A stretch of DNA of 64,000 nt from Blasia pusilla (taxonomy: Eukaryota): NCBI GenBank assembly GCA_050084515.1, contig CM114271.1:24924001-24988000 (forward strand). Reading direction: 5' to 3'. Numbering within the stretch: the stretch's first letter is position 1; each line of letters opens with the position of its first letter. The notes beneath the pieces are model-generated. The model was given only the letters and a program-made list of their open reading frames with translations. It searched no databases and had not been told where the DNA came from. Below, piece after piece: positions 21,301 to 61,462 of the stretch. The position numbers and the translations under genes are program-made.

Positions 21301-21800
21301 AGGATGTTTCTAATGTTTGAAGGTGTCATATATACATTGAAGTTAGTTTATGGCTGGTTTGAGGTACATAGATTACAAATGTGGAAGTGCTCTCGTTTTG
21401 GTATAATATAATCTTTTAGGAATCCATTACATAGTGAATAGGGTGGATATGTTGATGAGTGCACTACACACATCTTTGTTCGTTGTTTACTGTAGAGAAC
21501 ATTTCCACAATACCCACAACATTGCATGTCTCTAAATGTAGAGGAGTATATGTTCTTCCATTTAAGTAGGTAGCTATCTGCAAATGACCAACCATTACAA
21601 TAGGGTTGGCAATGTTGTTTTCTACGGTGGGAAAAATTTTTGGCTGATCTTTCTTTGTATTGCTAAACGATTCTTATTCAATGTATATGACTGCCTTCTT
21701 GAGGTTTTGACCATGTTGCTCAGGTTCAATGAGACCAAGCAATTTAACTTTAGTAAAGAAGTAGTAAAACACAAAAGGTAGTAAAGGTTTATTCTGAATT
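18378..21800 (-). pseudogene. Helitron-1 Rep (HUH) and helicase N-terminal part; element ends not determined
   Basis: FFLTLT, YELQGRDSLHCHMILW, YLLKYVLK, Walker A GPPGCGKT, VIVIDECSML, GDFCQIPPV; N-terminal CCGYCG. Confidence 0.9.
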
Positions 21801-29600: not shown

Positions 29601-30670
29601 ACTCGGAGACCATCTTCAATTTGGGCTTCATCATGTGGAGTAACATCGCATCCCAAACTCCCCTCCATAGCTCATGGTCCAACATCTCATACCAATACTG
29701 AACTGAATGCACCTCAGTCACCCCATATGTTGCAATGATCAATCTTTGCATGTGCGTAAATGCCTCTCTTAGACTCTCACCCGATCTCCAATGAAAACCC
29801 TGTAGACTCTTCAGCTTGTCCGTCCGCACGCCTTGATAGCTCCTCCCCAATTGTCGGAAGAACTCCACTGTAGGACTGAAACTTGGTGGCCCTCTACCAC
29901 CAGAGGTCTATGTCACCTCACCACCCTCATTGCCATCCTCTCCATCTAGTCCCCGTGTTGATGGTGTGGGTCTCTCCGTCCTCACTATCCCATTATATGC
30001 CTCGCGGCCACTAGTGGATACATACCCTGGAGCACAATACATCCTCTAGGCATCGATCTCTAGTGAGTGTAGTGATCGAAACTCCATGTAATCATCCATC
30101 GGAGGACCCTCCAAGTGTTGGAACAAACCCTTCCAAGCCATAAAAGGGTTGAACCGCGTTAGGTCTCGTATCTCCTGAAAGTCGCACCATGCATCGAACT
30201 CTTGGATGAAATCGTCTAAGTCAATGGTGCTTACCGCACCTGAGAAACAATGCATGCCCCAATGGCCCATGTCATCCATCTCCTGCCAAGTGACATTGTC
30301 CCTAACTGCGATCTCGTCACTAGACTTGCTGTCTAGTGATGATAATCCAGCTATGGACAGATGTCGAGGTAGCTCCTCACTCCACTCCGTGTCACACCAC
30401 CACTACTGCTCAAACTACCCCATTCTTCCCAACCCTGGAAGAACGGCGTGATGATCACCATGTCTCACCGGCTCAAGCACTCAGACTCATCGAGAGTCTC
30501 CCACACTCCTCACTAGCTCACTTATGCTAATGATAATCCCATAAGGACACACCCAACCTCACGCACACTATGTCCCTTTTGGATTTAGACATTGTTGGAT
30601 ACATCCCAGTTTATCACATGTCAAGTGCGCCTACACATGGCCATGGCTAGCCCCAACATTGTGCTTGACA
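26633..30670 (-). mobile_element. Older diverged relative of the same Gypsy lineage, internally deleted, 5' end not found
   Basis: Gag DLDDFIQEFDAWCD...WKGLFQHLEGPPMDDY; protease VILDS; FGGINT methyltransferase motif I remnant near 27537-27554; B-A-B-like terminal array at about 26633-27396. Confidence 0.8.
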
Positions 30671-36600: not shown

Positions 36601-39600
36601 TCCACGCAACACCCTCATCCACCTCAACACGTGTAGCGATAACACCCCACGTTCACACAAGCGTGGTGCTAAGCTGAAATACTGGAGCTAAGTCAACTCC
36701 TAAAGCCATCGGCTCCATGGCGAAAATAATGGGGATCCCAACCTTTGAAGTTGCCATCCGCAATCTTTGCATTGGATCTTTGCATCCGTGTCTACTACGC
36801 GATGTAGATGCCTCGATCCCCACTGTTGGCTCAATAGGCTGCCTAGGAACCATGGATGGAGTCTAAGCACCTCAGACAACAAGAATGACCAGGGAAGCCT
36901 AGCTGCCTCCCGGCCTCACCCCTCTGTGGGTCCAACTCCTGAGTAGCACCACGTGGCTCGGCGCTCAAGTGGCTCCTCTAAATAGCTGCGGCTGATGCCT
37001 CAACTTTGTCTTTGCACTCGCCATATAAGAGAGATCATCCCCTCCATAAGAGGTGGAAGCCCCTACTCCCGAACCTGATCTATCTTTGGATACCGACCAG
37101 TAGTAGCCAACTGCTCAAGCTGCTCAATCACGGCGACCATAGGCGACTCTGTCGTAGTGGTAGGGGTAGCCACCGTAGGCTCTCCAACCACTGGTCCACC
37201 TCTACCACCCCTACCACCTCTACCACCTCGGCCTCTCGGAGCTACTCCACCACGGCCACGGCTGATCTCAACTACGGATGAAGATCAAAGCAACGCTCTT
37301 GTGGATGACCTAGTCTCCCAATGATCACACTTGAGTTGGGGCCGATTGAGGCCCATCCTCCAAAGTCCGTCTCCCATCCTCTTGGGACAAAACTTCCTAA
37401 CATGATCACCTCCACATGTCCAACATGATTGTCTTTCTTTGGGGCAGCAAATGAAGGCAATGGTCTCTGCACAAATGTCCCTCTAGGACTTGGATCGAGG
37501 TCGCGTGTACCCCCACGACCCACTACTACTACCACCACCACTACTATGAGGCTGTGAGGTGGGCGGTGAACACGAAGTAGTAGTTGTATCCCCTCTTGAA
37601 TGCGGATGTCACCACTCTCTCCTTCACCATGTTAAGCTCAATCTTCTCAGATAAAGCAAACACATGGGTCAATGTGGGTGAATCATCACTCATAAGAGTA
37701 GCATCACGTACCCTACGGCGCAAATCTCTGTCCAAGATCCCATACCAAAACTGGACTGCTGATCCTCGTCACACACTGGGTAATAGCTGAAATCAAGCGT
37801 CGCATACAGTGTATGCCTCACGAAGACTCTCACGATCTTTCGCTCAAAGTCTGAAGATTCCTCAACTTCTCCGTCTTCACTCCCTGATAGTTCTTCTTCA
37901 AACTCTTGAAGAACTCTGCAACCGGGTTGAACGATGGTGGGGCACTAGTACCTCCACTAGTACCCCCACTAGTACCTCCACTGGTACCCCCATTCCGGCT
38001 CGTACTCGTACCACTCAACGTCGGGCTGGCTGGCATAGTAGGAGCACTACTACCAATACCACCATGGGTGATAGACACATAGCCTGGAGACCAATATTGT
38101 CTCCATGCCTCAATCTCAGCAACATGGTCCTTCCTAAACTCATGGTAATCATCCATGGGTGGTCCTTCAAATCTTTGAAACAACCCCTTCCAAGCCAAGA
38201 AGGGTGTAAACAACGTGGCGTTCGCAACATCTGCATATCACACCACGTATCAAACTCTGCATGAAGTCCTCCAACTCAATGGTGCCCCCTTTGCACCGAG
38301 TATCGTCGTGGGCCCTTCATGGCCCCATATCCACCGTCCATGTCCCAAATCAATGGAGCTGCAACACTCGATAACAACGTAGAAGACTCGGTGTTTGGAA
38401 CACCCTGATCCTCCTCTTCATCAACCGTCGGAAGTGGAAAAGGTAACCGATACCTAAATCCACTCCGTGTGAAACCACCACTGTCCGCACCACGGTCCCC
38501 AACAGACCACCCGACAACTCGTGATGACCAACGCCGATGCCGCACCACCACCAAATTACCCAAGTGCGTCGATGTCGCTCTACTATTGTAGCTCTACTAG
38601 CTATGGGTGTAGGCAATCTAACCTCTCATCACTACAAGAAGCCTCCCACGGTCTACGGGTCATCCCCAGCCCCACTATCGGTAGCACACGGGAGTAACAC
38701 TACTACGGAAATCAGCGTCAACCCTAACAATGGCGCGCAAGCAAAAAGCACGATGGAGGGGATCCAAACACAGGAAGTCCAACGACAACCCTCCAACCGC
38801 AAATGGAAATCAAGGTAACACAATCCACCAAACGTGGTGCCCCCTGAATCCACAAAACCCACCACACAATTCTAACGCAATAGCTACTCCGCGGCGGGTC
38901 GATAACGTACTAGTCGAACTCGCGAGACTGAAAATATCACTGCATGGAGAGGCTACACCGTACTATGCGCTAGAGGTACATCAACCAAAAACCTGAGATG
39001 CATAAAGCGCCTAACACATCTCGAACATCACCAAATGAGCTACAACGGTGTGTACGGCATAGTTAAGAACTCAGCGATTAAGCGTCCTCCAGGCAGAATA
39101 GCCCAAAGATGGGTGACCAGTTATGCAAAACTCAAATCCCAAATCCTGCAAAAATTGCCTCACCTCCAAGCAAGCAAGCTTGCTTGCTTGCTCCTTGCTC
39201 CTTACTCCGCCTCTCACGCACACTCGCCCCGAGCTACCACGAGTTGCCTCGAAGCCTCGAAACGCCGAGACATGCCCCTATCGCCCCGTTCGCCACGCTT
39301 CGCCATGCTTCGCTATGGAGAGAGGTCCAACCAGGGCGCCCCCAACGGGATAGGCGTCTCCAACAATGAACAAGTCACCAACCAACCAGCCCCTCCGATC
39401 CATTTGTCCACCATAGCGGACCTTGAGCTAGTCGCGAAATTTCGATCAAAAATTACTTCACAAATCGTGACCGAAATCAAATCTGTTTCGATCAGAATTC
39501 AATTGACCACCATAGCTATCTCCCCACAAAAACTCAGCTACAACCGAGCTCCGTACTCGAGCTAAAAATCAGACAAACTTCTTTGTCCATACACCTCTAG

Positions 39601-40391
39601 AACCGCCAAATCCCGGCGCTTCCGCCAAGTTTCATGCACGCAGAAATCCATAACGCTCCACGCACTTGAGCGAGATAGCTTCACATGAGATCACAATACA
39701 AGTAGCAATAGGAACCTCTCACCCGATCTGGATGAACTTCAACAGAGCTTCCGACTCCAAGCTCTCCACATCGGAAAAGCGTCGAACCACACGAAGAATC
39801 TTCAATGCTTGATAACTTCCAACTCCCTTGACGAAATCCGCGATCTACAGCGTTGGAAAGCTCTCAGCAAGGCGCTTCTTTCCCAACCAACCACGCACCT
39901 GATTCACACCTCCAACATAGGCAACAAGCTCCGAACATCCACGGCTGAGTACACAATCAGCCCTAACCGAGATCCTCTTGATCTACAATCGAAGCTACCA
40001 TCGATCTACTCCAGTTCTTTGAGTGAAATGCGTGAAAGACCTACTGTCATAAAACACGTTTACAATCACATACAATCGAGCCAAACCCACTCCACGATGG
40101 GAGAATCTAGGTCGAAGCTTGCGGGAAACACCATAGCCAAGAGCTCTACTCACTACCAAGGCTAACTCCCAACGCAAGAGGCTCAACTCAAAGAACTGAC
40201 TGTTCTTTGAGGGCAAGCCACCTTATATCCTCCAACCTAAGAGCGGGCCCTACTGGGAAAGTCACCCCCAAGTGAGTAACCCCCAACCCTATGTATGGAA
40301 CCGCATCTCTACCAAGCCACTACGGTCCTACATAAGGAATGGCCTCTACCAGCACACCATACTCTACGACATAATCCGTATGGTCATGACA
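30675..40391 (-). mobile_element. DNMT-PHD Gypsy copy B, about 9.7 kb, A-internal-B-A-B, many indels
   Basis: Perfect TSD CATG (30671-30674 and 40392-40395). A1 40024-40391, PBS 40013-40023, B1 about 31147-31252, A2 about 30781-31145, B2 30675-30780. All domains are present as fragments. Confidence 0.95.
34750..35695 (-). pseudogene. Copy B DNMT3-like methyltransferase domain, full span but frameshifted
   Basis: Fragments YVYVERDETAQRVSSRHI, EPNADER and CWVKAMDLNCLTWILSLG are collinear with copy C. Confidence 0.85.
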
Positions 40392-43435: not shown

Positions 43436-44696
43436 TGTCGTGTCGAGAGTCTTTCTTCGAGTAAGGGTAGGCCTTCTAGCTGCGATAGACGCGGTCGATG
43501 CAAGATGAACTCTCTGAGAAGATCTCCTTTTTCAATATAAAATTATATGTATACTCTCTATTCTCTCACGACAGGTATCACAAATGGAAGTGCAGAGGCG
43601 ATCACTTCTTCGTAACATCGGACCCCGAAATTCCTAACTATAAAATCCCTATAAACTATTTTACGCTTGTATACGAGGAAGATAGCACAACTAGTGTTAA
43701 ACCCTACTTGAGCAGGCCTCTAGACGTCCATGGATCGCTATATAAGGATATACAAAGTACAATCCCATGTCCTTCCATATGTGACGATAGGAAGGATCAC
43801 CGGAGTTGGAGATTGGATGACCTGGTTCATGAACGCCTCCCCAAAATGATAAACTAAATAGCGAGTGAACCCGTGCCTATCTACAAAGAGTATCTTGACA
43901 TTATATGGATTAAGGAAAGGAAAGTCGGGCACTACTCGTGCTCCACCCCTATCCATGCTTGACAGACATTCTCTACTCTCCTCAAAAATGGGTTTTGGCG
44001 GAGTTATTCTCCCAAGAGGGGTAATCCACTCTCATTGAGAAAGTAACAAGCCAAAACATTCACTATTTTAGTATGACTAAACTCCTCTAAGGTGACAAAC
44101 CTGTCATCTCCACACACACACCACACTCTAGAAACCTCTCGAAGAATAGACCATGGTTAAGTTACTCTCCCAAGAGGGGTGATCCACTCTCATTGGAAGA
44201 GCAAGCAATCCCAAAGCCATACACTCAAGAGTGACACGAAAGACTCAAGATGTGGAATAGAAGGTGATAAACCCTTCAAGGTCCCTCCTCTTTATATACT
44301 CACAAGAGACCCACAAGAGTACGAAATAGAGCTAATCTTATCTTGTGCCACATGGCTTCCTCTCAAGACTTAGCGAAGCCTTGAGAGGAAGCCATATTAC
44401 ACAAGTAGATTTCCTCTTATCTCTTCCAAAATATCCTCTTTTATCCACTTGATATTTTCCAACCAAGCCTACTTTTGTTTTCATTAAAGCACCAACCTCA
44501 CTACTTTACTTTTATAAAGTCATCATTTATTTATTACCTCTTTTCTTAAAGTTGGGCCCATATAAAAGAGGCACCATAAAGAGGTTTAAACATGGGAATT
44601 TCCTTTTCCCAAGCTAATTTACTTAATACTAATAAAACTCTCTCTAACACTTAACGAGGAAGGAGTTTACACGATGGCTGATTTTACTATACAACA
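43436..44696. mobile_element. Solo LTR-like element of a second family (1261 bp)
   Basis: TGTCG...CAACA termini with perfect 4-bp TSD CCGT; a homologous fragment lies at 54956-55372. Confidence 0.8.
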
Positions 44697-47600
44697 CCGT
44701 CAATTCACAAAGTTTGTTTTATTTCACAATCAACATTATGAGATTCTGCCATTGGGAAAGTGAGAATGCTCAGGTACGTTTCCAATGAATCCTGGCCTAC
44801 CTGAACTATGGTGGCTATCCATAATTGAGAGCGTGCAATCGCCCCGGATTGTTCCTGCATTTTTTTACGTTGTCAAGGGTGGTGGCCATACTCATTGGGA
44901 TTCTCTCTTGGGCAGCCGTTTCCTCTTATGTGTCTATTGGATTGCGGCTTACGGTCGGGTCTGACTCTCCTCCCCAAGCGGATCTAAATGTAGCAACCCC
45001 GGCTTAGTGTTGTATGCTCTTCCAGGCTTTTGCCGAGCTACCCTAAGTTTTGCTCCAGGATCCCATATTCTCAGTGGCCCGTATACCTTTGTATCACTCC
45101 TCTGCGGCTTTGTGTGTATCTATGTGCTTTCCGCGGCCTGTCGGTGTCCGTGTCATCCACCTTCTTGTCACATGAAAGCGGTAGCCAAAAACACCAACAG
45201 CGACCCACAACAGAAACCTCAATTTGCCCACTCGGCTGTACTTGTTTGTGTGTAAACATCAGGTAACACTTCATGGTTCACCAGGATTTTAATTCACTTT
45301 TATAGAATAGTTGTAAGCCTATCTCTCAACTGTGCGCTTGCCAATAGTACGAAGTGCGTTTTCGAATATCCCCACATTCAACATAAGCGACACCAAATTT
45401 CTTTTTTCAATCCCTGATGCAAACCTGGCTGAATTTTATTTGTATGTGGTGGACAGTGTTAAGCTCATAAGGCAATAGTAGCAATTCTTCAGGTATGTAC
45501 AAGGAGGCCCTATTTTTTCAATCAGGTTTTATCGTTCTTATGTGCTGAGTTTGCTTTTGCTTTGGTAATTCTCTCACTTTCCATCTTCTGTTCATTATGA
45601 ATTTCATACTCTATACAGACACCATCGATGTACGTTCCTTAGATATAGTTTCCGTTCAGCTGTAGGTCTGAATCTTGGCAATGCATCCAGAGCACTTTGA
45701 TTTACGTCTCATAGGCTTCGTTGTCAGTAAAGAATTTAAGGCAGATTTACTTACATTATCACTTTATTCCTTCACGTGATCGATGATGAAGCACCTGCCT
45801 ATCCGTTGTTGCTAAGGTAGTCTATCCATGCGTCATAGTTAACTACTTTCTAACTGACAAACACCCACTACTGTTGAAGTACTGCCTATGGCCAATTGGC
45901 TCAGCTGACTTTGTGGTGGTATTTCAGAATGCACGCAAATGCACGACCCCTCATATAAACTTTTGCACTGCCAATCACTCCTGCACAATATGGCCGTGTT
46001 GCAAACAATGGAAGTAAGTTCCACTTAGTTGACGTAGCCATGTCCAATGGGTTTCAAGCCATGCGTATGCACAGTGGTAAATGTTAAACTAGACTCACTT
46101 GCTCATACTCATGAAGAACTCAGCTCCCACCAACAACATGCCATCGACATTTCTTAGTATTGGCTAAGTGTACACTAAGCGAGTTGCTAAAGGGAGATCT
46201 TACGAAGGTTCTTATACGACAAGCTCAAGAATTCGAGGGTGTTTTCCGGGAGCGCCAGCTGAAATTGTTTCTTTAAAACACCTCCTCAATCATAATTTTT
46301 GTTGGTAATGTTAAAGACCATACCAGATTGTTTCTGTACATTTTTTAGGTCTTAAACTACATTTTCTGGGGGGTTGACAAACCCTCTTGTAACGGAAACA
46401 ACATCAACAACGATAGTAAACGCATAAAAGCTAGATAGTATAAACCTAGTATCAAAACTCGTAGCTACCTGTACAACATTTTAGTCGTATTTCAACGTGC
46501 ACTTATAGATCTTGTTTTTTGAGGCTACTCCTCAATCATTTCTAGTGTTCATATTGTAAAATACCAAACCAAATTGTTTTTGAATATTTTCCAGTGCTAG
46601 TGCTATACCGATGGAGGGGTTAAGCAAGCCCTTTTAACGACAACACCGACGACTGCAGTAAACTGACCATAGTTGGATGGCATTTGCCTAGTATTGAAAA
46701 TCTACAGCTCCTTGTACTGCGTTATAATTCCCTCACTAGCTATGTAAAGCTTCCATTTTTCATAATCAGCCTACAACACACTTGCTTTGTCCAGTCACAG
46801 GTTTATCTGCTGCATGTGGAAGAATTAGAATGCAGAAATGTTAAGTAACATTACAACTGAGTATACCTCAACAACACATTGCAGCACAACACTTACCTTA
46901 ATTTATCTTCACAATTCACCTGAACCTATAATACTCACGACAGTGGTAGTAAAGTCTATAGGACCGTCCAATCAATTCCAAGTACGTGGACACTATAGCT
47001 TACTATGCCAGTTTCAGGATACATAAGCATTGTCAAAACGAGATCATGCTAGCCCTTGAACCTCACGTGAGCCACAATTCACAAGGACTATAGCTGCCCA
47101 TTGCTACACTGATACATTAGTTGCAATACTGTCCCTTCAATTATTCAGAAACAAGTCCGTTCCATTGCTCCGTCATCAATTATTTATTTAGTATAGCACG
47201 CCCATAACATGGTATGGCCTAGAAGGGCTATACAAAACAGATCGATGCTTCTACTAGATAAAGTAAGGTTATGACGGTGCAAACTTCAGGTTGTGAGCAG
47301 GATACCACATTCAGCTAGGCTCCAGAGACAGCATGTATCTACTACTTGGCCTAAAATCGATGTTCTACTTCAGAATTGGGAAACATTTTGCTCAAAACTA
47401 ATTACACAGATGAAATGTTGTGGCTAATGTGGTGATGTATCATATAGTACAGGTCAATTGAGGATGACTATTACAGTGAGTGAAATTTACCCACCTTATG
47501 CACTTTGTAATGCATTCATGATGTCGTGCAAATCCACATCGTCATACAACATACATCGTTGACATACCATACTCACATACATACATAACATAGACGAGAG

Positions 47601-47800
47601 CATACACAAACACAAGTGTACCACAACTCGCCTCCCTAATTGGCGGTTAGGTCCCTCTAACTCCCAGGTATCCCTATACATCTACTACATGCTATACACC
47701 TTCGTGGGTGCACGAATCAGAAGGCCGTGTGCGAGGTTGCCCCATCGTAAGTCACACATCTGTAATCCATATCATGCAATGATCAAGTCATCTACCCCTC

Positions 47801-47941
47801 CTAAGTACATCGAGGACAAACCCACCTTCCAGTAGGAACAACATCCATACGTGGAGTCAAACACATCATGTGCCAACCCCTAGAACACCGATCACACACC
47901 AACATACGGACTGCGTTACCAGTAGACCCACACAACATGCA
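47801..47941 (-). CDS. PHD finger (C4HC3) at the integrase C-terminus of copy C
   Basis: CMLC-x11-CDRC-x4-HMMC...WVCPRC in the same ORF as the integrase core (47801-48535). Confidence 0.92.
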   Translation of the reverse strand, partial: CMLCGSTGNAVRMLVCDRCSRGWHMMCLTPRMDVVPTGRWVCPRCT

Positions 47942-50930
47942 CCTCAAGCTAGCATGTATCATGGCTAAGCTTGGGTCAACACAACCATCCACATTTGGAA
48001 GATGACATGGCGCACAATTACGCACATGGTCCTTCCAAACAACTCTGTCACGACCCTCCAACATGAGAACTCCAGAAGCTAACACCTCTCGCACTCGTAA
48101 AATAGTGCGGCCTGCCATCACATCCAACGTTGTCAGTGCAATCTCTTGCAAATAGACATAGTCTCCCACATGGAACCTACGAATCGATGGTCGATAACCT
48201 CCATCCCGAATGGTTGCATACCGCAACGTATCCGTGTGTTGAGCAATGGCAAGATTCTCAAAGGCTGTTGGCATAACTCTCCGAAAGAGCTCTGCCCGCT
48301 GAGAACACACTCTCATCCACATCTCTGGGTCATCAAGGTTCATCACCTCACAACACTCCCGAAGAATTGCTGCTAGCAAGTCTGGATCTCGGCCGTATAA
48401 CAAAAAATAAGGTGAGAAGGAAGCCAAGGATGCTTGGCAACTGAACCTGTACCCCATGGCTAACCATGGCAACTGAATATCCCAGTCTCCAAGATGCCCC
48501 TTCTGTAGGCCATACTTGTGCAATGCCCTCTTCACCGTCTAAACCACACGCTCAGCCAAACCATCCGCCTCTAGATGATCTCGAGATGTGGTCCGATGAT
48601 CAATCAATGCCTTGTCACACAAGACCTGAAACTCACCCTGAAACTCTATACCTTGGTCGGTCACCACCTGAGCTGGTGCACCAAAATGACTAAGCACTCT
48701 ATCAATAAACGTATACGCCGTCCCCTCACTTGCCTTGTCAAGTAATGCCACCAACTCAATCCACTTGGAGAAGTGCTCCACCATCACCAACACATATTGA
48801 TGATGTCGTCTAGTCAACGATAACAGTCCCGCAATGTCCACACTCCAATGTTAGACCCAACCCCATAATAGGCAAGGGGTGTAACTGTAGTGTTGGGGCA
48901 TTAAATGATGCCCTCACCCGGTCACAAACCATACAACGTGACACCAACTACTGCACCTGAGTATGTATGCCACACCACCAATACTGGCCAAGAGTAAGCT
49001 ATACGTACGCTTTACCCCAAAATGTCCCAACTCCTCATGGGCATGTCGCACAATGCGCTCTCTCTAAGCCAAATGCGGTACCACCCGTACTCTACCATCC
49101 TCCCACACACGGAGAATATGTGTTCCCTCCACTCGATACCTCATAGCACGTTGAAGAACACGGTCTCGCTCCTTGGCACTCATTGTGCCTGATACCCTAC
49201 TGGTCCGTAGGAACTCCAACACCAACGCATCATCATAAATATCATGTTGATCCGTACCATCAACTCCAACCTTAGGATCTGAAGACTGGCCATCTACCCT
49301 CTTACTAGAGCAAGATGTCATGTGGTCCTCCATACTAGAGTCCACCCCTAACCAACATAAAAAGGCAGATGCATGCCAAGTAGCATCAACCTGGCACCAT
49401 CTCCTCATCAACCTCGCCATTCCAAGTAGCCCCAGTTGCATCCTCTTGGCTAGTACATGGGTTCCTACTCAACCCATCAGCATCGAGGTTGGCAACTCCA
49501 GGTCTATGTACCACTTGGAAGTCATACTCATGTAAGATAAGAGCCCACCGTGCAAGCTTCCATGTAAGCTTGTTAGACTCCATCAACCACTTGAGAGGCT
49601 GGTGATTAGTAATAAGGGTTAAGTGTGTGCCAAACAAGTAACACCTAAAGTGTGCCACAACCCACACTACTGCCAAGCACTCTCCCTCATATGAACTATA
49701 GCGCGACTCCGCTGCATTATTCGAACGACTTGCATACGCCACCACAAACTCCATGTGCTCATCATCATGTTGTGTCAACATTGCTCCAAGTCCCAACATA
49801 CTCCTATCAGTGTGCAACTGAAATGGGCGCCCTCTGATAGGTCTCCTCAAGATAGGCGTAGCCACCAACTCGGCCTTGAGCTCCACAAAAGCTCTCTCTT
49901 GATCATCTCCCAAGTGCCACTCCTGATCTGATTTCAGAAATTGGTTCAAAGGCTTTGCCATACACTAAATCCCTTCACATACCTCCGATTGTAGTTCACC
50001 AATCCCATGAATGCCCGAAGTCTACTCACATCTATTGGACGAGGAATAAGTGCAATAGCCTCCACCTTTGCTTGTTGAACTCCCAAACCATTTGGATAGA
50101 TCACATGACCCAAGTACTCAACATCCTCATGGAAGAACTTACACTTTCCTGGATGCAAACGTAGACCATGAGCTTTCAACCGCTCAAACACCATCTGCAA
50201 ATGTATCTGATGCTCCTCCACCGTGTTACTGAACACCAAGATATCATCAATGTAACACCGAACAAAATCCAATCCTGCTAGGATCCTGTCCATCACTCTC
50301 TGAAACTCGACAGGTGCATTCTTCAACCCAAAGGGTAAGAATTTCCACTGGTACAAACAATCCTTGCCATGAGAGTTGACACCCCAAAATGTTGTCTTGG
50401 CCTTGTCACTCTCCCGAATCGGCAATTGATGGTATCCTGCCCGGAGATCCAAAGTACTGAAAATCTTTGCCTGTCCCACCACATCAAAGATCTTCTCAAG
50501 TGTAGGCATGGCATACCTATCGGCCTTGGTTTGCCGATTGATAGGACGGTAATCTCCACACATCCGCCTATCCGTGTAGTTGCCATGCATATCTTTTTTT
50601 AGCATGACACGGTGGGCGATGCATACTCTCCATGCAACAACTCCACTAATCCAGCCTCCAAAAGGTCCAACTTCCTATTCTGAATCAGGTCCCTCTCCAT
50701 ATCACTATATCGGTAGGGACGACGGAAGATTGGCGTATCACTAGCCAAATCAATCCGTATACCGGGTCCAACCAGAGAACCCAACTCCTTCATGCTAAAG
50801 GCAAAACAACTCCTATAAGCACGTAGGAACTGTGTCAAGCGTCGTTTCTCACCTCCCGTAAGCTTGGGTCCAAGTAATGGCTCCCAAGTCTCCTCCACTG
50901 GCACACTAGAGGGAGAGGACGATGCCATTG
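47942..50930 (-). pseudogene. Copy C reverse transcriptase, RNase H and integrase
   Basis: ORFs 49946-50605 (YIDD), 49386-49961 (RNase H), and 48539-48841 plus 47801-48535 (DDE core: VDIAG, VTDQG, GLAER). Confidence 0.95.
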
Positions 50931-51174
50931 GCAGCTACGCAACCCCCTCACAAGATGGTAGACCCTTAGCTACACCATCATCGAGCAAATAACTCCTCCA
51001 CCAAAGATGAGCAACCAACTCCACATGCCCACCATTACATCCCATTTACTCCAAGGATGCAAAATACTACTCTCCTCGCCCCCAACCGATGCCTCTACCG
51101 TCCCGGTAGCCATCGAGCTCATTACAATGGGTGGAAGACCCACAGACATAGTCCGAAGTCGACGCTGCGCGCTC

Positions 51175-52130
51175 GGCCATACCAAGACTCAAAATCCAAG
51201 TCAAACAATTCAGGTCCATGGCCTGACCCAACACATCACGTCGTAAAGCCTTAGAAATGGAAGCAACCGCTGTCACACCAGTAGCAAATCCCATCGCATG
51301 CTCTCTCTCATCAGCGTTAGGCTCCACCAACTGTCGCACATGAGAATCCCATACAAGCCCCGGACCACCTTCCGTGTATGCATGTGATGAGGGAAAACTC
51401 ACAAATGTGGGTAGTGCCATCCTAGGCTGGCCCACACGGTTCACCACTGCCATGGGTGACCGATCAATAACCCTCACCACCGAGAACGCCGCCAAAGATC
51501 AAGATACTATCCTTTCGTAAGGCAAGGATCCCGATGCACTGCATCATATCCTCGATGTAGAACCTCCCTAGGCAACAAGTTTGTCCACCACAAGCGTGGA
51601 CGATGTGCACGCGAGCCAACTCGCGCTGCATCCAACAACACCGCTGGTCCAATCCAAGACCGCAGCTCATGAACACTCGCCATCATCCGGGTCCGAGTGT
51701 CACCCAACAATGGAACATTCTCCAGAATGTAAGCTAGAGCATGTGCCTAATGAACCTGAAGATGTCGTAACACCCGTAATATCTCCCAAAACAATCGAGA
51801 CCTAGGGTCGTGTAATCCCTCACCACGACCAGCACGTGTATGACCCTGACATGGTCATCCAGCAATCACCAAATCCACAGGACCAACCCTCTCAAGGTCT
51901 TGCGCCCCCAACAATGCAATGTGTGACGGCAAAGCACGCTGGTACCCACGAATAGCTGATGGCGGCAACAACTCATGATATCTCCGCATCAACTAACCAA
52001 TATGTCGGGATGAGACTCTCTGGGCCGTCTCATATCGCTCCACATACACGTATCTCCGCACAGGAATACCGGCCTGCAATTTTGCAACCAAACCAGTGCT
52101 AATCCCACCAAAGAGATCTAACACACAAAT
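51175..52130 (-). pseudogene. Copy C complete DNMT3-like C5 cytosine methyltransferase domain with in-frame stops
   Basis: Motifs in canonical order: VLDLFGGISTG (I), DLVIAG*PCQG (IV), ILENV (VI), AHRPRLWWTN (VIII), EREHAMGF (IX), RRDVLGQAMD (X). Confidence 0.93.
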
Positions 52131-52559
52131 GCCCTCCGGTGGATACTGCCATACAATGGTGTAGTATTCAAAGGGGATAACCCAACTGGACCAGAAGTAA
52201 AAGTCCGCCGTGGGGCCTCCTCTTCCTCGTGAGGTATAACACCCTCACACCAAGCCTCCTGCACTAGGCAAGCAGCCTCCTGCCGTAGTGCACCGCCTGA
52301 ACTCCAAAGTGGCACATCCAACGATGAGGATACCATTGCTGCAATACTAGGGACCTCCTCTACCTCCTCATGCAGAGGAGAATCCATAGCAGAAATGGTA
52401 CCCTCCAAAAAGTCTCTTGGCCAAGTGACTTCTCCACTAAAACCAACCACATATGCTAACACTGTTGGGGAAGACCCTCCTGGTTGAGCCCAATAAATAA
52501 ATCTCACAGGAACCTGGCTCATACGTCCATCCCCAGACTGCCAACCAGGTCTATAAGAC

Positions 52560-54800
52560 GCTGTCTCAATCCAGTAGTCCATCTAAAAACCCATCGGGTA
52601 CAATACTGCTCCTCCAACTAGTACATCATATGACTTGGCCGATGTGACCACTGTAGGTACTCCCAACCTGGAGCTATCAATCGCATCATATGGTCTCAAC
52701 TATACAGAAAACTTCCCCCGTGTCATGAAATGAGACCTATCATTGGCACCTCCAAGTGATGTCTGAATTTGGAATGGGCAAGGCTCAAGCTCTGACCTCC
52801 GAATACCCAAACCAATACATGTTGCCTTTCCCAACATCAAAGGTTGGGCACCAGAGTCTAACAAGACTCTATCTCGTCTATACACTTGTCTTGTAGGACT
52901 CACCAATCGGAATATGCCACTCCGGTTGTCCAACATACATACACCAGGTGTAAGCCTCTCACGATCAATGGCTGGCCGGGCTGGTAATGCATCCATCTTC
53001 GCCGCTGCTGCCTGCCAAGTAGCACTGGTACTCAATGCTACACCTGACATAGAGGGTCGCTCCACCGCAACACCCTCATCCACCTCAGCACGTGTAGTAG
53101 TAACATCCCCACGTTCACACAACGTGGCTGCTAGCTGAAATACAGGAGCTAAGTCAACTCCTAAAGCCATCAGCTCCGTGGCCGAAAACAATGGGGATCC
53201 CAACACTGAAGTTGCCATCCGCAATACTGCACTGGATGTTGCATCCGTGTCTACTACACGCGATGTAGATGCCTGAGTCCCCACTGTAAGCTCAATAGGC
53301 TACGTAGGAACCATGGATGGCGTCCTAAGCACCTTAGACAACAAGAATGACTGGGGAGCCTAGCCTGCCTCCCAGCCTCACCCCTCTGTGGGTCCAACTC
53401 CACAGTAGCACCACGTGGCTTTGACGCCCAAGTGGCTCCTCTCATAACTGCAACCAATGCCTACACTTGTGGTGCACTCGCCATATAAGAGAGATCATCC
53501 CCTCCATAAGAGATGGAAGCCCCTGCTCCCGAACCCGCTCTATGCTGGATACCAGCCATAGTAGCCAACCTCTTCTCCAACTGCTCAATCCTGGCAGCCA
53601 TAGCTGACTCTTTTGTAGTGGTAGGAATAGCCGCCGTAGGCTCTCCAACCACTGGTCCACCTCTACTACCCCTACCACCTCGGCCTCTCGGAGCTACTCC
53701 ACCAACGCTGCGGCCTGATCTCAACTCTGGATGAAGATCAAAGAAATGCTCTCGAGGATGACCTCGTCTCCCGCAATGATCACACTAAGTTGGAGCTGAC
53801 TAAGGCCCATCCTCCAAAGTCCATCTCCCATCCTCTTGGGGACAAAACCTCCTAACATGATCACCTCCACATGTCCAACATGACTGTCCTTGCTGCGGGG
53901 CAGCAAATGAAGGCAATGGTCTTTGCGCAAACGTCCCTCTAGGACCTAACTGAGGTCGTGTGGACCCCCCACGACTCCCACTACTACTACCACCACCACT
54001 ACTACAAGACTATGAGGTGGACTGCTGAACACGAGAAGTAGTAGTTGTATCCCTACTGAATGCGGATGTCACCACCCTCTCCTCCACCATATTAAGCTCA
54101 ATCTTCTCAGATAGAGCAAACACATGGGCCAATGTGGGTGAATCATCACTCATAAGAGTAGCATCACGTACCCTACGACGCAACTCTCGCTCCAAGATCC
54201 CATACCAAAACAGGACTGGGTGAGCCTCAGTCACACCCTGGATAACTGATATCAAGCATCGCATACGAGTGTATGCCTCACGAAGACTCACCAGTCTTTC
54301 GCTCAAATTCCTGAAGACTTCTAAACTTCTCTGTCTTCACTTCCAGATAGTTCTTCTTCAACCTCTTGAAGAACTCTGCAACCGGGCTAAATGATGGTGG
54401 GGCACTAGTACTTCCACTAGTACCCCCGCTGGTACCTCCATTGGTACCCCCACTCCGGATCGTACTTGCACTACTCAATGTCGGGCTGGCTGACACAGTA
54501 AGAGCACTACTACCACTACCACCATGGGTGATAGACACATAGCCTGGAGACCAATATTATCTCCATGCCTCAATCTCAGCAGCATGGTCCCTCCTAAACT
54601 CATGGTAATCATCCATGGGTGGTCCCTCCAAGTGATGAAACAACCCCTTCCAAGCCAAGAAGGGTGTAAACAACGTGGTGTTCCGCAACATCTGCATATC
54701 ACACCACATATCAAACTCCTGAATGAAGTCCTCCAACTCAATGGTGCCCACTGCACCCGAGTATCGTTGTGGGTCCTTCATGACCCATACATCTTGTCCA
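52560..54800 (-). pseudogene. Copy C gag and aspartic protease
   Basis: ELEDFIQEFDMWCD, zinc knuckles and VLLDSGAQ. Confidence 0.9.
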
Positions 54801-54955
54801 TGTCCGAAATCAATGGAGCTGCAACACTCGATAACAATGTAGAAGACTTGGTGTTTGGAACACCCTCGTTCTCCTCTTCATCAACGGTCGGAAGTGAAAA
54901 AGGTAGCCGATACCTCAATCCACTTCGTGTAAAACCACCACTGTCCGCACCACGG

Positions 54956-55372
54956 TGTCGTATAGTAAAATCAACAAGTATGTAAATTCCTTCGTCATTA
55001 AGTGTTAGATAGAGTTTCATTAGTATTAAGTAAATTGGCTTAGAAAAAGGAAATTCTTATGTTTAAACCTCTTTAGGGTGCCTCTTTTATGCGGGCCTAA
55101 CTTTACAAAAGGAGGTAATAAATAAAAGATGACTTTATAAAAGTAAAGTAGTTGCTTTAATGAAAAGCGAAAGCAGTCTTGGTTGGTGGCTAGGTTAGTT
55201 GGGGTACTTTGGAAAATATCAAGTAGGTAAAAGAGGATATTTTGGAAGAGATAAGAGGAAATCTATTTCTGTCAAAATGTGATTGGCTAAGCCTTGAGAG
55301 GAAGCCATGTGGCACAAGATAAGATAAGCTCTATTTCATACTCTTGTGGATCCCTTGTGAGTATATAAAAAG
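54956..55372 (-). mobile_element. Truncated fragment of the second-family LTR nested in copy C's leader
   Basis: Reverse-complement similarity to about 44290-44696. One intact end (TGTCGTATAG); the other end is lost together with about 250 bp of host sequence. Confidence 0.85.
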
Positions 55373-57929
55373 AAAGCAAGAAGCAACGATGGAGGGGATC
55401 CAAACACAGGAAGTCCAACGACAACCCTCCAATCACAAATGGAAGTACAAAACGGAAATCAAGGTAACACAATCCACCAAACGTGGCACCCTCTAAATCC
55501 ACAGAACCAACCACACAATTCTAACGCAATAGTTACTCCGCCGGTGGTCGATGACGTGCTAGTCGCACTCGCAGCACCTGAAAATGTCACCTGCATGGAG
55601 AGGCCACACCGTACTCTGCGCTAGAGGTCCATCAAACGAAAACCCGAGATGCATAAAAGCGCCTGACGCATCTCCAAATAACACCAAATGAGCTACACCA
55701 GTGTGTACAATGGCATAGTTAAGTACTTAGCAATTAAGCATCTTCCAGGCAGAATAGCTCAAAGATGGGTGACCAATTATGCAACACTCAACTCACAAAT
55801 CGTGCAAAAACTGCCTCACGTCCAAGCAAGCAAGCTTGCTTGCTTGCTCCTTAATCCTTACTCCGCCTCTCACGCCCACTCGCCCCGAGCTACCACGAGT
55901 TGCCTAGAAGCCTTGAAACACCAAGAAATGCCCCTATCGCCACGCTTCACTATGCTTCGCTATGGAGAGAGGCCCAACCAGGGCGCCCCTAGCGGGATAG
56001 GTGTCTCCAACAACGGACGAGTCACCAAACGCCGAGAAATTCTCGAGACATGCCCCTATCATCCCGTTCGCTATGCTTCGCTATGCTTTGCTATGGAGAG
56101 AGGCCCAACCAGGGCGCCCCCAGCGGGATAGGCCTCTCTAACAATGGACAACTCACCCTTCGATGTGCTGTCCACCATAGCCAGACCTTGAGCTAGTCCG
56201 CAAAATTTCAACCAACGATTTCTCCACAAATCCTCAACCAAAATTGAATTTTTTCCAACCAAAATTCAATTGGCCACCATAGCTACCTCTACACAAAAAA
56301 TCAGCTACAACCGAGCTTTTTACTCTGAGCTAAAAATCAGACAAACTTGTTGTCCATACACTTCAAGAATCGCAAATCCGACAGCGCTTCCGCCCAGATT
56401 CATGCACACAGAAATCTGCAACACTCTTTCACCATAGCAGCAATCCGCTCCACACACTCAAGCAGATAGCTTCACATGAGATCATAGTAGAGGTAGCAAT
56501 AGGAACCTCCAACCTACAGAGCTTCCACACTCCAAGCTCTCCACATCAGAAAACCGTCCAACACGAACCACAATCTTCAATCTTTGATAACTTCCAACTC
56601 CCTTGACAAAATCCACCGATCTAAAGTACATTGGAAAGCTCTCAAAAAGGTGCTTCTTTCCCAACTAATCATGCACCAAATCCACACCTCTAACATAGGC
56701 CATAAGCCACGAACATCCATGGATGAATACACAATCAGTCTAACCACATCCTACTCATCTATGATCGAAGCTACCATCGATCTACTCCAATTCTTTGAGT
56801 GAAATCCGTGAAAGACCTATTGTCATAAAACACATATAGAATCACATAAAATCGAGCCAAACCCACTCCACGATGGGAGAATCCAGGTCGAAGCTTGCGG
56901 GAACCACCATAGCCAAGAGCTCTACTCACTACCAAGGCTAACTCCCAACGCAACAGGCTCAACTCAAAGAAATAATTGTTCTTTGAGTACACTCCACACT
57001 ATATCCTCCAACCTAAGGGCGGGCCCTACTGGAAAAGTCACCCTCAACGGAGTAACCCCCAATCCTATGTATGAAACCGCATCCCTACCTAGACACTACG
57101 GCCCTACATAAGGTATGGCCTCTACTAGCACACTATACTCTACGACATAATCCGTATGGTCATGACAATGACCCGTTATGTCATACCATCTCATGGAAAA
57201 TTTTACGTATATGCCCATTTCCTGAATGGAAATCAAAATACATCCCAAAATGTGTACATGACACCTGCATATATTCGCGTGATGTACTAAATTTTGAGCC
57301 GCTTTACCTTCAATTTCTTTCCATAGTTGATTCTAGATTAGGTATAGAGACAAAATAAAATGGGTTTCATAGTGGTTTTTTCCTGGTTGACTCACTTATT
57401 GATTGCCCCCTTATTGGCTGGAATGTCTCATTGCCACTTTCAACAGACCCTAATTTCCTTTACAGAAAAATAAGGAGTGTTTTACTAGTGAATCTCAGGG
57501 TTAATCAATTGTACTCTCAGTACGTTCCCTTGATAGAGCTTCCTAATCCAACCTGTGGTCTTATTATTATGCCTTCGTCCTCTTTTAAATCCATTCTAAG
57601 GGCGTCATGAGACAAGGGTCAGGTCACGCACAGTATGAATATTGATCCGTAGACTATAGAGCTTAATGTTCTGCAAGATGTTCCATATACACTTCTAGTA
57701 AAAAAAAGGCATTCCTTTGATATTTTCCACATGGCAGTATATTCCTAAGGGAGCAAGCCCACACTAGAGAACAATTTTTTAGTGACAATAATGGCATATC
57801 ACCGGATACCAAGCTCACTATTGAGACTGGAAAATTCCCATTTCTCTTCCCGTATCTTCGAGGTTTTTTTACGGGGCACTATTCTTTTGCCGACTACCTT
57901 CGCAATCAGACAAGACTACTGTTCAACGT

Positions 57930-58046
57930 GTTCATATTATATAAACCCTACCTTCTTATTATGCACCAGCTTCGGCAGTCCATTGGAGGTTCACATTATA
58001 TAAACCCTACCTTCTTATTATGCACCAGCTTCGGCAGTCCATTGGA
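57930..58046 (+). repeat. 59-bp tandem duplication inside Helitron-2 Rep
   Basis: GTTCA(T/C)ATTATATAAACCCTACC...GTCCATTGGA occurs twice in tandem. Confidence 0.9.
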
Positions 58047-58260
58047 TTAGCATCCACAACCCGTTCTTGTGCTTTGAATAGAGAACTTGATGAACTTAAG
58101 CGCATATATCCAGCTCTTGCCATGCACAAACTTTATTCTCACTTATCCAAGTATACCATTAGTGCACAGATTCCTGGCAGCCCAAGTTGGCACAGGAAAC
58201 ATTTGAGAGACCTTAAGACTATGGTTAAAAAATGGGGCATGCCTGATTTTTTTAACACTT

Positions 58261-58734
58261 TGTCATGACCATACGGATTATGTCGTAGAGTATGGTGTGC
58301 TGGTAGAGGCCATTCCTTATATAGGACCGTAGTGGCTTGGTAGAGATGTGGTTCCATACATAGGGTTGGGGGTTACTCACTTGGGGGTGACTTTCCTAGT
58401 AGGGTCCGCTCTTAGGTTGGAGGATATAAGGTGGCTTGCCCTCAAAGAACAGTCAGTTCTTTGAGTTGAGCCTGTTGCGTTGGGAGTTAGCCTTGGTAGT
58501 GAGTAGAGCTCTTGGCTATGGTGTTTCCCGCAAGCTTCAACCTAGATTCTCCCATCGTGGAGTGGGTTTGGCTCGATTGTATGTGATTGTAAACGTGTTT
58601 TATGACAGTAGGTCTTTCACGGATTTCAGTTGTGGTACACTTGCGTTTGTGGATACTCTCGTCTATGTTATGTATGTATGTGCGTATGGTATGTCAGCGA
58701 TGTATGTTGTATGACGATGTGGATTCGCACGACA
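58261..58734 (+). mobile_element. Solo terminal unit A (58261-58628) + B (58629-58734) of the DNMT-PHD Gypsy family
   Basis: TGTC...GACA termini with perfect TSD ACTT, inserted in the Rep FLTLT motif of Helitron-2. Confidence 0.95.
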
Positions 58735-61462
58735 ACTTACCTCTGATGAGGTCTCTGGTACCAAATGGCCTGAAATTCTGCTCATTGAGGAGGTGCTAAA
58801 AAGGATAAACCCTGCATTCATATGGTACGACGCACCAGCTGAGTGCACTATACTCTTTCACACTAGGCTTAAGAAATTTCTCCAGGCCTATGTATTAGGT
58901 GGATCTTGCATTCTTGGCACTGTGCACAACTACTTCATCAGGTATAAGCTCCAGGGTAGGGGAAGCCTACAATCCCACATTATCATGTGGGTCGACAAAA
59001 AAGATGTCCGTAGGGTCACCACAGAGATTTGCTGCTATATTCCTCGGCTCAATTGTTCTATAGACGGCAACCATATTCAGTATTCGGCACTTCATAAACT
59101 ACACCACTATGTGACTACTAAACAGATGCACTCTTGTAGCCAGGGCGGTTGTATTGTTGGTGCAACAAGGGACCATGCTCCATATTGTCATATGGGCTTC
59201 CCGTCTGCCACAAATACTGAACTAGATCCATTAATTTATCCAAAATATCTCAAGTGGACCTACTATAGGCCAAGGCATGAGGACTGTAATGTTATTCCAT
59301 ACCACCCCGTTGTTCTACTGCTTTGGGGGGCCCATATGAACTTGCAAAGAGTAACAAATGTACAGTGGTCCTTTTATCTATTGAAATGTGAACCCCAGGG
59401 CGCCCTTAACATTACTATAGAGTGTGCAAAACCTCTTAGAAGGCTTAGATGAGACAAGGTTGCGATTAGTTTCTGGTGTTTTGCTAAACCTCCATGTATC
59501 ATCCACCGAAGCTGCTCTCACCACACTAAGAATCCCAATTATACAAAGGTCTCAAGGGGTACAGTATATAGATTCCAGCCCATCCCATAGACAAACAACA
59601 CTGTATAGGAATGCAACAACAATATGTATACACACAACTACGTTGTATTTCCATAGGCCTCAGTGCTTATCTCAAATGACTTTCATTCAGTTTTGGACTC
59701 ACCATGACCTTGTAAAGCTCAGAACAGGTAATGTAAAAAAATTCGTTGGACTTGATATGATAGGAAACTGGGTGACACAGATAGGCTTGTCCGATTCACT
59801 TAGTACCACCCCTTGCACCAATGGAATGAATTTTTTCATTCCACACTCCTTGATAATATATGTTTTAGAGTTGAGGCTGAAATCTTAACTATATCCTCTC
59901 CTAGTTGGACTTATTTACATGAGTGCATATTCAGAAAAATATTTAAGATAATTTCTTGTGTAGTAGACCAAATACAAAAACATGCAGAAGCTAACCTCTG
60001 GAGTGAGGTACATATAAGTGAAGTAATCTCTAAGACACTTGACATCATAAAGCCAAATCTTCAATTTGACACCCTTCCATAGACATTTTCTAAAAACTCC
60101 GCTACTTCAAATATATCAAACGTGCCGTCTGCTCCTGATATAGACTCACTATTTCCAGTGGAAGTACTCAATGCAAAGCAACTCCGTTTATATGAAAATA
60201 TTAGGTTGCTCTCGTTTGGATTGGTGTTGATAACAGGCCCGCTCGGGTGTGGCCAAACCTATTTTATTCATTTCCTGCAGTCCTATTGGGCAAAGAAGGG
60301 TATCCCTACACTATTCTCAGCCACCACTCGTATTGCGGCCATTAGACTGCATTCCACAACAGTAATTGTCCACTCAACATTTGGCATACCGCTCACAGGT
60401 GATTTTCCCTCCATGCATTCAGCTTCAGACTAGTATATTCGCATTAAGAATGCTGGAGTTGTCGTTATCGATGAGTGCTCGATGCTGACAACCAAATTGC
60501 TACAGATAATTGCTATGCGCTTACACCAAGTATGCCCATCCTCCACCGATGCTTTCTCCACCAAGCTTGTAATAATATTAGGTGATCTATGTCAACTCCC
60601 CCTTGTTTGCAAGCATAAAGAGAAGCCATTTTGCACATTGTGTTATATCTCTTCTTCTCCATTCTATTCAACAGCCATTAGATATGAATTGACCACACCA
60701 ATGAGACACGCAAATGATCCAGACTTTCTGAAGTTTCTATCAGATATCAAGACTACTTGTCCACTGCAAACACACATAAGCCAGTGTCTTCACACTTGTT
60801 ACATTGATTAGGACAGAGCGCTAGATTTTATTGATGAAGACACCTAGATTATATGCACGCATCGTGTCGATGTTCAAGTATTCAACCTCATCACACTAAG
60901 GAGACTATTTGGCGTAGTTGAGATAATCCAGGTTAACATATCTATAGATGCCCTACCTGACCCCCAATTTACCAAATGGATATCTGATCAGACATTCCAT
61001 CAATTAGACTTCCTTGCTATAGGTTGTAGGGTTCTTCTCACTTCTAATGTGGACATAGGCATTCATGCAGCAAACGGTGCATCTGCAACTGTTGTTGATT
61101 ATATCTACAAGAATGACGAGTTGACATTTATTCTAGTTCGTCTACAATTGAACGATGCACTATTGAGAATAAGTAGAACAAACTTTGTACATTCAGACAT
61201 GGTCCAGATGAAAAATACCACAAAAGGACGTTTCCCCTTGTTCTAGGTAATGCAATGACGGTCCACAAAATCCAGGGTCTCACTGTTGCGGAAAAATGCG
61301 TCCTACACGATAGATCAACTTTTGCTCCCGGTCTTGTATATGTAATGTTGTCACGTGTCAAGTGTAGATCAACACTACAAATTCTTGGAAACCTTGTCCC
61401 TGGAAATTTCTCAGTGTTTGGCAAGGACCCTTGATTTAGCTCACACTACCAAGTTTCACACA

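Follow-up and report, generated by a model that had tools for sequence, protein, structure and literature searches.

A retroelement copy without terminal repeats in a Helitron gene of Blasia pusilla and the split-repeat Gypsy family to which it belongs

Organization of the locus

This analysis concerns copy C, a retroelement copy found at 47522-57167 (minus strand) of a 64,000-nucleotide (nt) stretch of the Blasia pusilla assembly GCA_050084515.1 (contig CM114271.1, positions 24,924,001 to 24,988,000, forward strand), which is referred to throughout as the window. It belongs to a Ty3/gypsy family of very high abundance that encodes reverse transcriptase (RT), RNase H, an H2C2 plus DDE integrase, a C-terminal PHD finger and a cytosine-5 DNA methyltransferase (DNMT), and is itself dead and made of a single unit. 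Four copies of this family were recovered in the window by BLAST of positions 47001-57700 and by reading of the borders. The family is built from two modules, A (368 bp, TGTCATGACC...GGATTTCA) and B (GTTGTGGTAC...GCACGACA), the latter measuring 106 bp from GTTGTGG or 107 bp if the preceding adenine, common to both of its contexts, is counted. In copy C the order is A, a predicted primer binding site (PBS), gag/pol, a polypurine tract (PPT) and B.

Both borders of copy C were read directly. On the left, ...TTC ATGA is followed by TGTCGTGCA, with the element starting at 47522; on the right, ...CATGACA closes on the last element base at 57167 and is followed by ATGA CCCG. The target site duplication ATGA is exact and occupies 47518-47521 and 57168-57171. 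Read in the orientation of the element, copy C consists of a 368-bp A segment (57167 to 56800, opening with TGTCATGACC), the internal region, the PPT AGGGAGGCGA (47637 to 47628; AGGGGGGCGA in copies 1 and 2) and, immediately downstream, a 106-bp B segment (47627 to 47522, closing with ...GCACGACA). Compared with the B segments of copies 1 and 2 and of the solo copy, this sole B shows 92.5-95.3% identity. BLAST of 47001-57700 against the whole window found no second A or B within copy C, which is left without any terminal repeat.

The insertion site lies in a Helitron gene. Helitron_like_N and PIF1 domains were found in the flanks, and removal of copy C with one ATGA yields a stop-to-stop frame of 70 amino acids (aa) that contains CNAFMTRYVIP. 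With the full-length RepHel database protein P0121 (1346 aa) as reference, tblastn places residues 33-94 upstream of copy C (47347-47523, plus strand) and residues 127-1346 downstream (57272-61419, plus strand), the latter split by the solo A-B copy. The alignment is colinear over three insertions: across copy C it passes from residue 94 at 47523 to residue 127 at 57272 (33 residues for 100 nt), across the solo from residue 438 at 58265 to residue 437 at 58736, and across copy 1, which sits in a second Helitron on the minus strand, from residue 1111 at 18374 to residue 1112 at 9932. This colinearity, used in place of paralogous empty sites because the two Helitrons are too diverged in their DNA, indicates that A-int-B-A-B, A-B and A-int-B (int, internal region) each act as a single inserted unit. 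The original prediction had described copy C as A-internal-PPT-B flanked by ATGA with no terminal repeat, and had held that its excision restores the Helitron frame. The border reading and BLAST bear out the first claim, and the 70-aa frame together with RepHel colinearity bears out the second.

Other copies of the family in the window

Two of the other copies are of the full type. Copy 1 (9937-18373, plus strand) reads A-int-B-AC-A-B, with A1 at 9937-10304, the internal region, B1 at 17791-17897, the spacer AC, A2 at 17900-18267 and B2 running to 18373. Its flanks are AACA and AGCA, and its repeats are 95.7% (A1 and A2) and 95.3% (B1 and B2) identical. Copy 2 (30675-40391, minus strand) has the same layout with a degenerate junction before the second A, carries the duplication CATG and shows repeat identities of 99.1% (A) and 97.1% (B). 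The remaining member is a solo A-B (58261-58734, plus strand) with the duplication ACTT, and it interrupts the Helitron_like_N domain. The termini TGTCATG...CACGACA are common to all four, and these TG..CA ends are accompanied by a short target site duplication (ATGA, CATG and ACTT; AACA/AGCA) that is perfect at three of the four insertions and matches at three of four bases in copy 1; a single 4-bp match has a chance probability of 1/256. By BLAST, copy C is 93% identical to copy 1, which lacks about 910 bp, and 89% identical to copy 2.

The internal region of copy 2 is the most decayed of the copies (55 short frames, 89% identity to copy C) despite its near-identical repeats; copy 2 may be a recent insertion from a non-autonomous lineage that was defective beforehand, or homogenisation may have made its repeats alike. 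Within copy C, a 418-bp stretch (54956-55373) replaces about 245-255 unrelated bases of copies 1 and 2 and is 85% identical to window positions 44288-44700 on the opposite strand.

Coding capacity and affiliation

Stop-to-stop frames were scanned with Pfam in two rounds, the first covering seven frames of copy C and seven of copy 1, and the second covering 30 of the 36 copy C frames of at least 50 aa and 19 of the 34 copy 1 frames. In copy C, all on the minus strand, the scans identified an RT frame (49946-50674; PF00078, E 3.4e-34), an RNase H frame (49386-49964; PF17917, E 7.9e-34), the catalytic core of the integrase, rve (48542-48850; PF00665, E 1.7e-12), and a last pol frame with a C-terminal PHD finger (47804-48538; PF00628, E 3.6e-10). 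The order on the coding strand, RVT_1, RT_RNaseH, rve and PHD, is the pol order of Ty3/gypsy elements. Copy 1 adds an Integrase_H2C2 domain (16191-16712), and the gag match was weak. No tyrosine recombinase (Phage_integrase, PF00589) was detected in the 63 translated frames of copy C and copy 1, a scan that left aside the 55 frames of copy 2, 15 minor frames of copy 1 and three of copy C. The two identical bounding long terminal repeats (LTRs) of a Ty3/gypsy element are absent, since the layout is A-int-B-nn-A-B, and A-int-B in copy C. An arrangement A-coding-B-A-B is seen in copies 1 and 2, and copy C is without the final A-B.

A DNMT domain lies inside the Gypsy pol. It is represented by a DNA_methylase fragment in copy 1 (14401-14637, plus strand; PF00145, E 4.6e-7), by a frame-broken part of pol in copy C (51352-52100, minus strand) that aligns in tblastn with residues 235-484 of the Marchantia protein P0003 at 68-77% identity and with the DNMT region of P0021, and by PF00145 in the precomputed Pfam lists of relatives. 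Along copy C, the match to the Marchantia protein extends from 53314 to 49349 and takes in the DNMT part at 52100-51352. The DNMT fusion stands upstream of RT in this Gypsy pol, and the same fusion occurs in liverwort proteins that include Marchantia Mp_2g26090.

When the RT frame was compared with longer proteins, 484 of 1310 candidates matched at E<=1e-20. The top named matches are from liverworts, namely Calypogeia fissa (81%) and Marchantia polymorpha Mp_2g26090 (82%), a protein with RT, RNase H and DNA_methylase domains. Next in rank are environmental proteins without a name, which combine rve with PHD and in some cases also have DNA_methylase, and proteins of Closterium and Klebsormidium stand at about 48-49% RT identity. 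The pol of copy C is split over many frame pieces, which, with the 93% and 89% identity to copies 1 and 2, indicates that copy C is old and dead.

Repeat borders and the predicted LTR

In an alignment of the six copies of A, a TATA box stands at A position 165 (57003-57000 in copy C) and is followed by an inverted repeat, CTCAAAGAAC and GTTCTTTGAG separated by a loop of 5-7 nt. Thirty nucleotides past the TATA box, at A positions 195-205, lies AGTTCTTTGAG, and in copies 1 and 2 the 11 nt directly after A1 (CTCAAAGAACT) are its exact reverse complement. In copy C the corresponding site at 56789-56799 (minus strand) reads CTCAAAGAATT, with one change and an exact 9-mer. Such an 11-mer was present in only 3 of 20,000 shuffles of A. 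This complement is predicted to be a self-priming PBS of the Tf1/sushi type, and the predicted transcript start and self-primer of copy C would fall at about 56973-56963 (minus strand). A tRNA-type PBS, TGGTAGCTTCGATC, located 23 nt past A1, was considered and rejected, as the similarity of A1 and A2 ends at ..TTTCA and the U5 (unique 5') region cannot reach it.

A copy of the PBS sequence occurs 5-7 nt upstream of the predicted transcript start in all A copies, where it pairs with the self-primer as a hairpin. Examples are found at window positions 18080-18110 and, in the metagenome relatives described below, at L012 6797-6840 and L001 ~8800-8860, and the feature is kept in three families. 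This copy would belong to U3 (the unique 3' region), so that the RNA would carry it at its 3' end alone.

The position of the predicted PBS directly after A1 implies that U5 would end at the 3' end of A, and the G-rich purine run AGGGGGGCGA abutting B1 implies that U3 would start at the 5' end of B. Taken together, the two sites suggest that the LTR of reverse transcription is B-GC-A rather than A-B, and this unit is intact only once per full copy, internally. The B1-A2 junction reads ...GCACGACA-nn-TGTCATGACC... and forms, as B-GC-A, the 10-bp palindrome GACAGCTGTC (GACA-GC-TGTC), the two arms of which are the exact integrated ends of all four copies. The A2-B2 joint, ..GGATTTCA followed by GTTGTGG.. 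(..ATTTCA/GTTGTGG..), is the same in copy 1, copy 2 and the solo. Given the PBS and PPT positions, this joint would connect the final base of U5 directly to the initial base of U3, as ligation of both ends of a linear complementary DNA (cDNA) would do, and its presence in integrated copies suggests that the cDNA ends had been joined. Schemes in which the 5' end of A and the 3' end of B serve as direct linear cDNA ends were rejected, because B does not end in a purine-rich stretch and no primer complement is present where A begins. No strand-transfer scheme producing the U5-U3 joint could be found.

Relatives in metagenome contigs

Metagenome contigs were scanned with an alignment of 18 relatives. 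The scan matched 592 stretches, 528 of which encode relatives, and the best 80 were kept; loci of at least 6 kb were compared with themselves, 15 were examined more sensitively, and the sequence downstream of pol was read in seven. Six loci form an AT-rich family (L004, L005, L012, L033, L034 and L064) with a G-run PPT, a B of about 100 bp ending in ..GACA, a 2-nt spacer (AT, GC or TC), an A and a second B, straight after which the similarity among loci ends. Their A has a TGTC-like start, a TATA-like box and a hairpin, CAAATCAC-ttttg-GTGATTTG, and their B1 and B2 are 84-92% identical. Nothing resembling A1 rose above shuffles in these six loci, whose 5' ends apparently lie beyond the contigs or are truncated. 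L012 also contains a second element in reverse orientation, whose 5' end is A-like and has no B before it, and this is the sole 5' end reached among the metagenome relatives. The DNMT-bearing L001 reads PPT, B, ..CACGACA-GT-TGTCAC.. and hairpin up to the end of its contig.

A sister family of six loci (L002, L007, L008, L013, L019 and L022) is about 80% identical to the window family at the DNA level. In L013 (3482-3596), pol, PPT and B are followed by unrelated flank, which gives a second one-unit 3' end, and in L007 (3321-3602) a deletion joins the end of pol to the middle of A2 with the A/B joint kept. A G-run abuts B in L013, L001 and the six AT-rich loci as well. Overall, 10 readable 3' ends are of the full type (two in the window and eight in the loci) and two are of the one-unit type. 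To judge from these contigs, the clade has conserved the split layout together with the palindrome. When a 19-nt motif taken from the B end was searched for, viral contigs gave no match; six matches in contigs of prokaryote metagenome-assembled genomes have no more than 26 nt in common with the element and were set aside as chance.

Read contigs and abundance

Contigs of four public runs (X1, X2, X3 and X5) were placed on window positions 46300-58000. The summed contig depth over the element runs to thousands, compared with 2.6-4 for flank contigs, which indicates a very abundant family, depth not being equivalent to copy number. The B-GC-A joint likewise reaches a depth of 474 in X1 and 443 in X3, with GC between the arms and minor GCTC and C variants in X3. 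Positions in A and B are several-fold deeper than those near the PPT, a weak sign that repeat-mediated loss to solo copies is common. Joints of A and B in X2, X3 and X5 were of low depth, with varied positions and inserted letters, and none was among those listed for X1. The varied joints may point to a joint formed afresh with every insertion but could equally stem from short unitigs and from which joints were among those listed, and they were not counted as evidence. At the copy C site, no contig in the four runs spans flank-B-PPT or flank-B-A, and no empty-site joint is among the joints listed; the contigs are short, and the right flank at 57248-57638 has no cover in X1.

A possible integration route

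The anatomy of the family suggests insertion from cDNA with joined ends. In the simplest scheme, transcription would begin about 30 nt after the TATA box inside A, and the first 11 nt of the RNA would prime the minus strand at the complementary site after A1, as in Tf1/sushi elements. The plus strand would begin at the purine tract before B. The cDNA ends would then be joined, whether through a 2-LTR circle or through repair once both ends made at one palindrome have been inserted by the integrase. For integration, the integrase would cut after each CA of one internal palindrome and leave 2-nt GC overhangs like ordinary processed ends. Integrated copies would in this way end at GACA-GC-TGTC within the LTR, with TG..CA termini and a 4-bp duplication, and not at the ends of the LTR.

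The product would depend on which palindrome is cut. A cut in the LTR upstream of the PBS would give A-int-B-GC-A-B, which would be the replication-competent integrated form because its RNA would run from the R (repeat) region in A1 to that in A2. If the other LTR were cut instead, A-B-GC-A-int-B would result. The form of copy C, A-int-B, would arise when both palindromes are cut, or when a one-LTR circle is cut at the only palindrome that it has.

Taken further, the scheme leads to a broader proposal, which we put forward tentatively and regard as somewhat doubtful as a whole. The streptophyte clade of Gypsy elements with DNMT and PHD may be incapable of integrating linear cDNA by its ends, and its DDE integrase may instead use the palindromic site inside the LTR on joined-end cDNA, the equivalent of a 2-LTR circle, as obligatory substrate. 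The DIRS-like split repeats would then have arisen by convergence, and copy C, with perhaps many solo A-B copies, would be a direct by-product of one-LTR circles or double cuts.

Origin of copy C

For copy C itself, the reading we favour, with a probability of roughly 0.55, is that a full-type copy inserted into the Helitron and later lost A2 and one B by recombination between B1 and B2 or by single-strand annealing. Such a loss would leave A-int-B with its original ATGA duplication. In a full copy the two B segments form direct repeats of 106 bp, separated by only about 370 bp. Copy C is old, as judged by its 89-93% identity to the other copies and its fragmented pol, and other losses have affected the same end of relatives (the L007 junction of pol to A2) as well as copy 1, with its missing 910 bp or so. 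In addition, the predominance of full-type 3' ends (10 of 12) indicates that integration favours the full form, which would be odd if one-LTR forms were good substrates. The greater contig depth of A and B positions is a further, weak point in its favour.

Several points weigh against this reading and the family scheme in which it is placed. The sequence of copy C holds no trace that would tell a recombined B from an original one, and no B-A-B allele was seen at its site in contigs that are too short for the purpose. Six old AT-rich copies (B1 and B2 84-92% identical) and copy 1 (95%) retain B-A-B, which indicates that loss between the B repeats does not proceed quickly. Under the family model, moreover, A-int-B is expected to arise directly, as a by-product of a one-LTR circle or of cuts at both palindromes, and a second one-unit 3' end exists in L013. 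The proposed transcript start, priming, end joining and integrase cut are deduced from sequence. Finally, the reciprocal form, A-B-GC-A-int-B, is absent among the four readable 5' ends, which the model does not explain.

Direct integration of copy C as one-unit DNA, through a cut at the single palindrome of a one-LTR circle or at both palindromes of a linear or 2-LTR cDNA, was the origin preferred by the original prediction, and it is a possible but less probable explanation than loss from a full-type copy. The ends of copy C coincide exactly with the integration termini of the family and are flanked by a perfect ATGA duplication, and any one-LTR form cut at the GACA-GC-TGTC inside the LTR would yield A-int-B. 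An end of the form int-PPT-B followed by flank recurs in the approximately 80% identical sister family (L013), and B-A-B is retained in nine old full copies. Passages in PMC1180852 and PMC1905944 report integrase cleavage at palindromic LTR-LTR junctions for foamy virus and human immunodeficiency virus type 1 (HIV-1). Against this stands the fact that simple deletion gives the same structure and that none of the A-int-B copies was shown to be young or polymorphic. Among circles, one-LTR forms are usually the most frequent, and A-int-B should dominate if they were good substrates, yet it accounts for only two of the 12 readable 3' ends.

The circle model of the original prediction thus fared unevenly. 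At the level of the family it gains from the predicted self-primer PBS, the PPT at B1, the A2-B2 joint and the internal palindrome, but this does not extend to copy C itself as a direct product of a one-LTR circle. The accompanying claim, that a copy without a 3' R region is a replication dead end, is supported, for R is predicted to lie within A, a segment that is missing from the 3' end of copy C; without it, copy C could not replicate further under either origin.

An assembly collapse, in which the true locus is a full A-int-B-A-B and B2-A2-B1 were merged into one B, is very improbable. The copy number of the family is very high, and the sole flank-bridging contig (X1, 337 nt, no differences) enters B by only 28 nt and cannot separate the two forms. 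The same assembly, however, resolves B-A-B in copies 1 and 2, and the B of copy C has private variants such as T at 47559 in place of the C of nearly all family contigs. The notion that the family is a tyrosine-recombinase element of the DIRS order (PAT/Ngaro type), with copy C a truncated member, can practically be dismissed, for although the topology A1-int-B1-A2-B2 is that described for PAT/Ngaro and SymbioDIRS, the scanned frames hold no Phage_integrase match, H2C2 and rve integrase domains are present, the precomputed Pfam lists of intact relatives include rve but none of the tyrosine recombinase families, and the copies have 4-bp duplications (three of four insertions, with three of four bases in the fourth) and TG..CA termini, neither of which, to our knowledge, is expected of DIRS elements.

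Relation to known systems

The closest published counterpart is KnitGypsy-Dnmt3 of Klebsormidium nitens, which pairs a DIRS-like arrangement of repeats with Gypsy domains (de Mendoza et al. 2018, PMC5890265, Fig. 4c legend). It shares with the window family a Gypsy pol with DNMT inside the polyprotein and the A-coding-B-A-B layout (PMC5890265), and a K. nitens protein, P0043, is among the RT relatives at 49% identity. The window family, in contrast, is liverwort-like, its top named matches being Calypogeia fissa and Marchantia polymorpha at 81-82%. The passages of PMC5890265 on KnitGypsy-Dnmt3 give no target duplications, palindrome, priming or integration mechanism, and they describe the DNMT-Gypsy fusion for Klebsormidium only. 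Full-text literature searches found no further published description of this split-repeat Gypsy layout, and the literature on split direct repeats that was listed comprises tyrosine-recombinase elements, reviews and unrelated topics. The window family is therefore a new liverwort-type member of a kind already noted, and its anatomy adds a mechanistic reading. New here are the predicted self-primer PBS, the PPT at B that would make the LTR B-GC-A, the ends at an internal palindrome and the A2-B2 joint as a putative U5-U3 joint.

With PAT/Ngaro elements the family has in common the repeat order A1-int-B1-A2-B2, a B1-A2 junction that mirrors the joined ends of the element, and the logic of a circular or ends-joined intermediate. 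It differs from them in its DDE integrase with an H2C2 zinc domain in place of a tyrosine recombinase, and in its 4-bp duplications, TG..CA termini and repeat borders at the PBS and PPT as in LTR-type reverse transcription. A second comparison is with Tf1/sushi and the plant Tcn1 clade of chromoviruses, for which self-priming has also been predicted in passages of Neumann et al. (2019, PMC6317226). As in those elements, a tRNA-type PBS is lacking and the predicted PBS complements the predicted first 11 nt of the transcript. Unlike them, the window family has a C-terminal PHD finger rather than a chromodomain, its integrated copy is permuted relative to the LTR, and its self-priming is a prediction from sequence.

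The proposed cut also recalls retroviral 2-LTR circles, for which passages on prototype foamy virus (PFV; PMC1180852) and HIV-1 (PMC1905944) treat the CA..TG palindrome of juxtaposed ends as a proposed internal integrase substrate that gives two processed ends when cut. The palindrome of the window family differs in being part of every LTR (in U3) and in having a 2-nt spacer, features read here from DNA, and its use appears to be obligatory and not a side pathway. Formation of solo LTRs offers a further parallel, since recombination between direct repeats removes the intervening DNA and keeps the duplication. Split repeats, by contrast with ordinary LTRs, yield two deletion products, a solo A-B from A1 and A2 and an A-int-B from B1 and B2, and the latter, the type of copy C, ends without any terminal repeat.

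Circular cDNA of retroviruses and LTR retrotransposons is generally regarded as a dead end. If the proposed route is true, the family would represent a natural DDE-integrase lineage with joined ends in the productive pathway, and split direct repeats would be no signature of tyrosine-recombinase elements, which bears on the classification of transposons. LTR finders will miss or misfile the window family, and copy C illustrates that such families make repeat-less copies that annotation pipelines cannot recognise structurally. Liverworts, one of them a laboratory model species, hold the closest named relatives, which makes the question testable.

Additional observations

Two diverged Helitron RepHel genes are present in the window, one at 9224-9932 and 18374-21608 (minus strand) and the other at 47347-47523 and 57272-61419 (plus strand). 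Three of the four family insertions (copy 1, copy C and the solo) lie inside these genes, a pattern that may stem from a PHD finger that directs insertion to repeat chromatin or from mere survival in dead transposons.

Among the metagenome loci, L078 (39% aa identity) has nested terminal repeats of the form X-Y-int-Y-X at 7077-7804 and 12589-13313, which are 99.7% identical and in which X abuts Y on both sides. It may be an LTR element within a 374-bp duplication or another permuted layout. Adjoining copy 2 in the window, positions 27932-28561 (minus strand) and 30079-30244 hold a fragment of an older, more distant relative that is 39% identical to the N-terminal part of Mp_2g26090.

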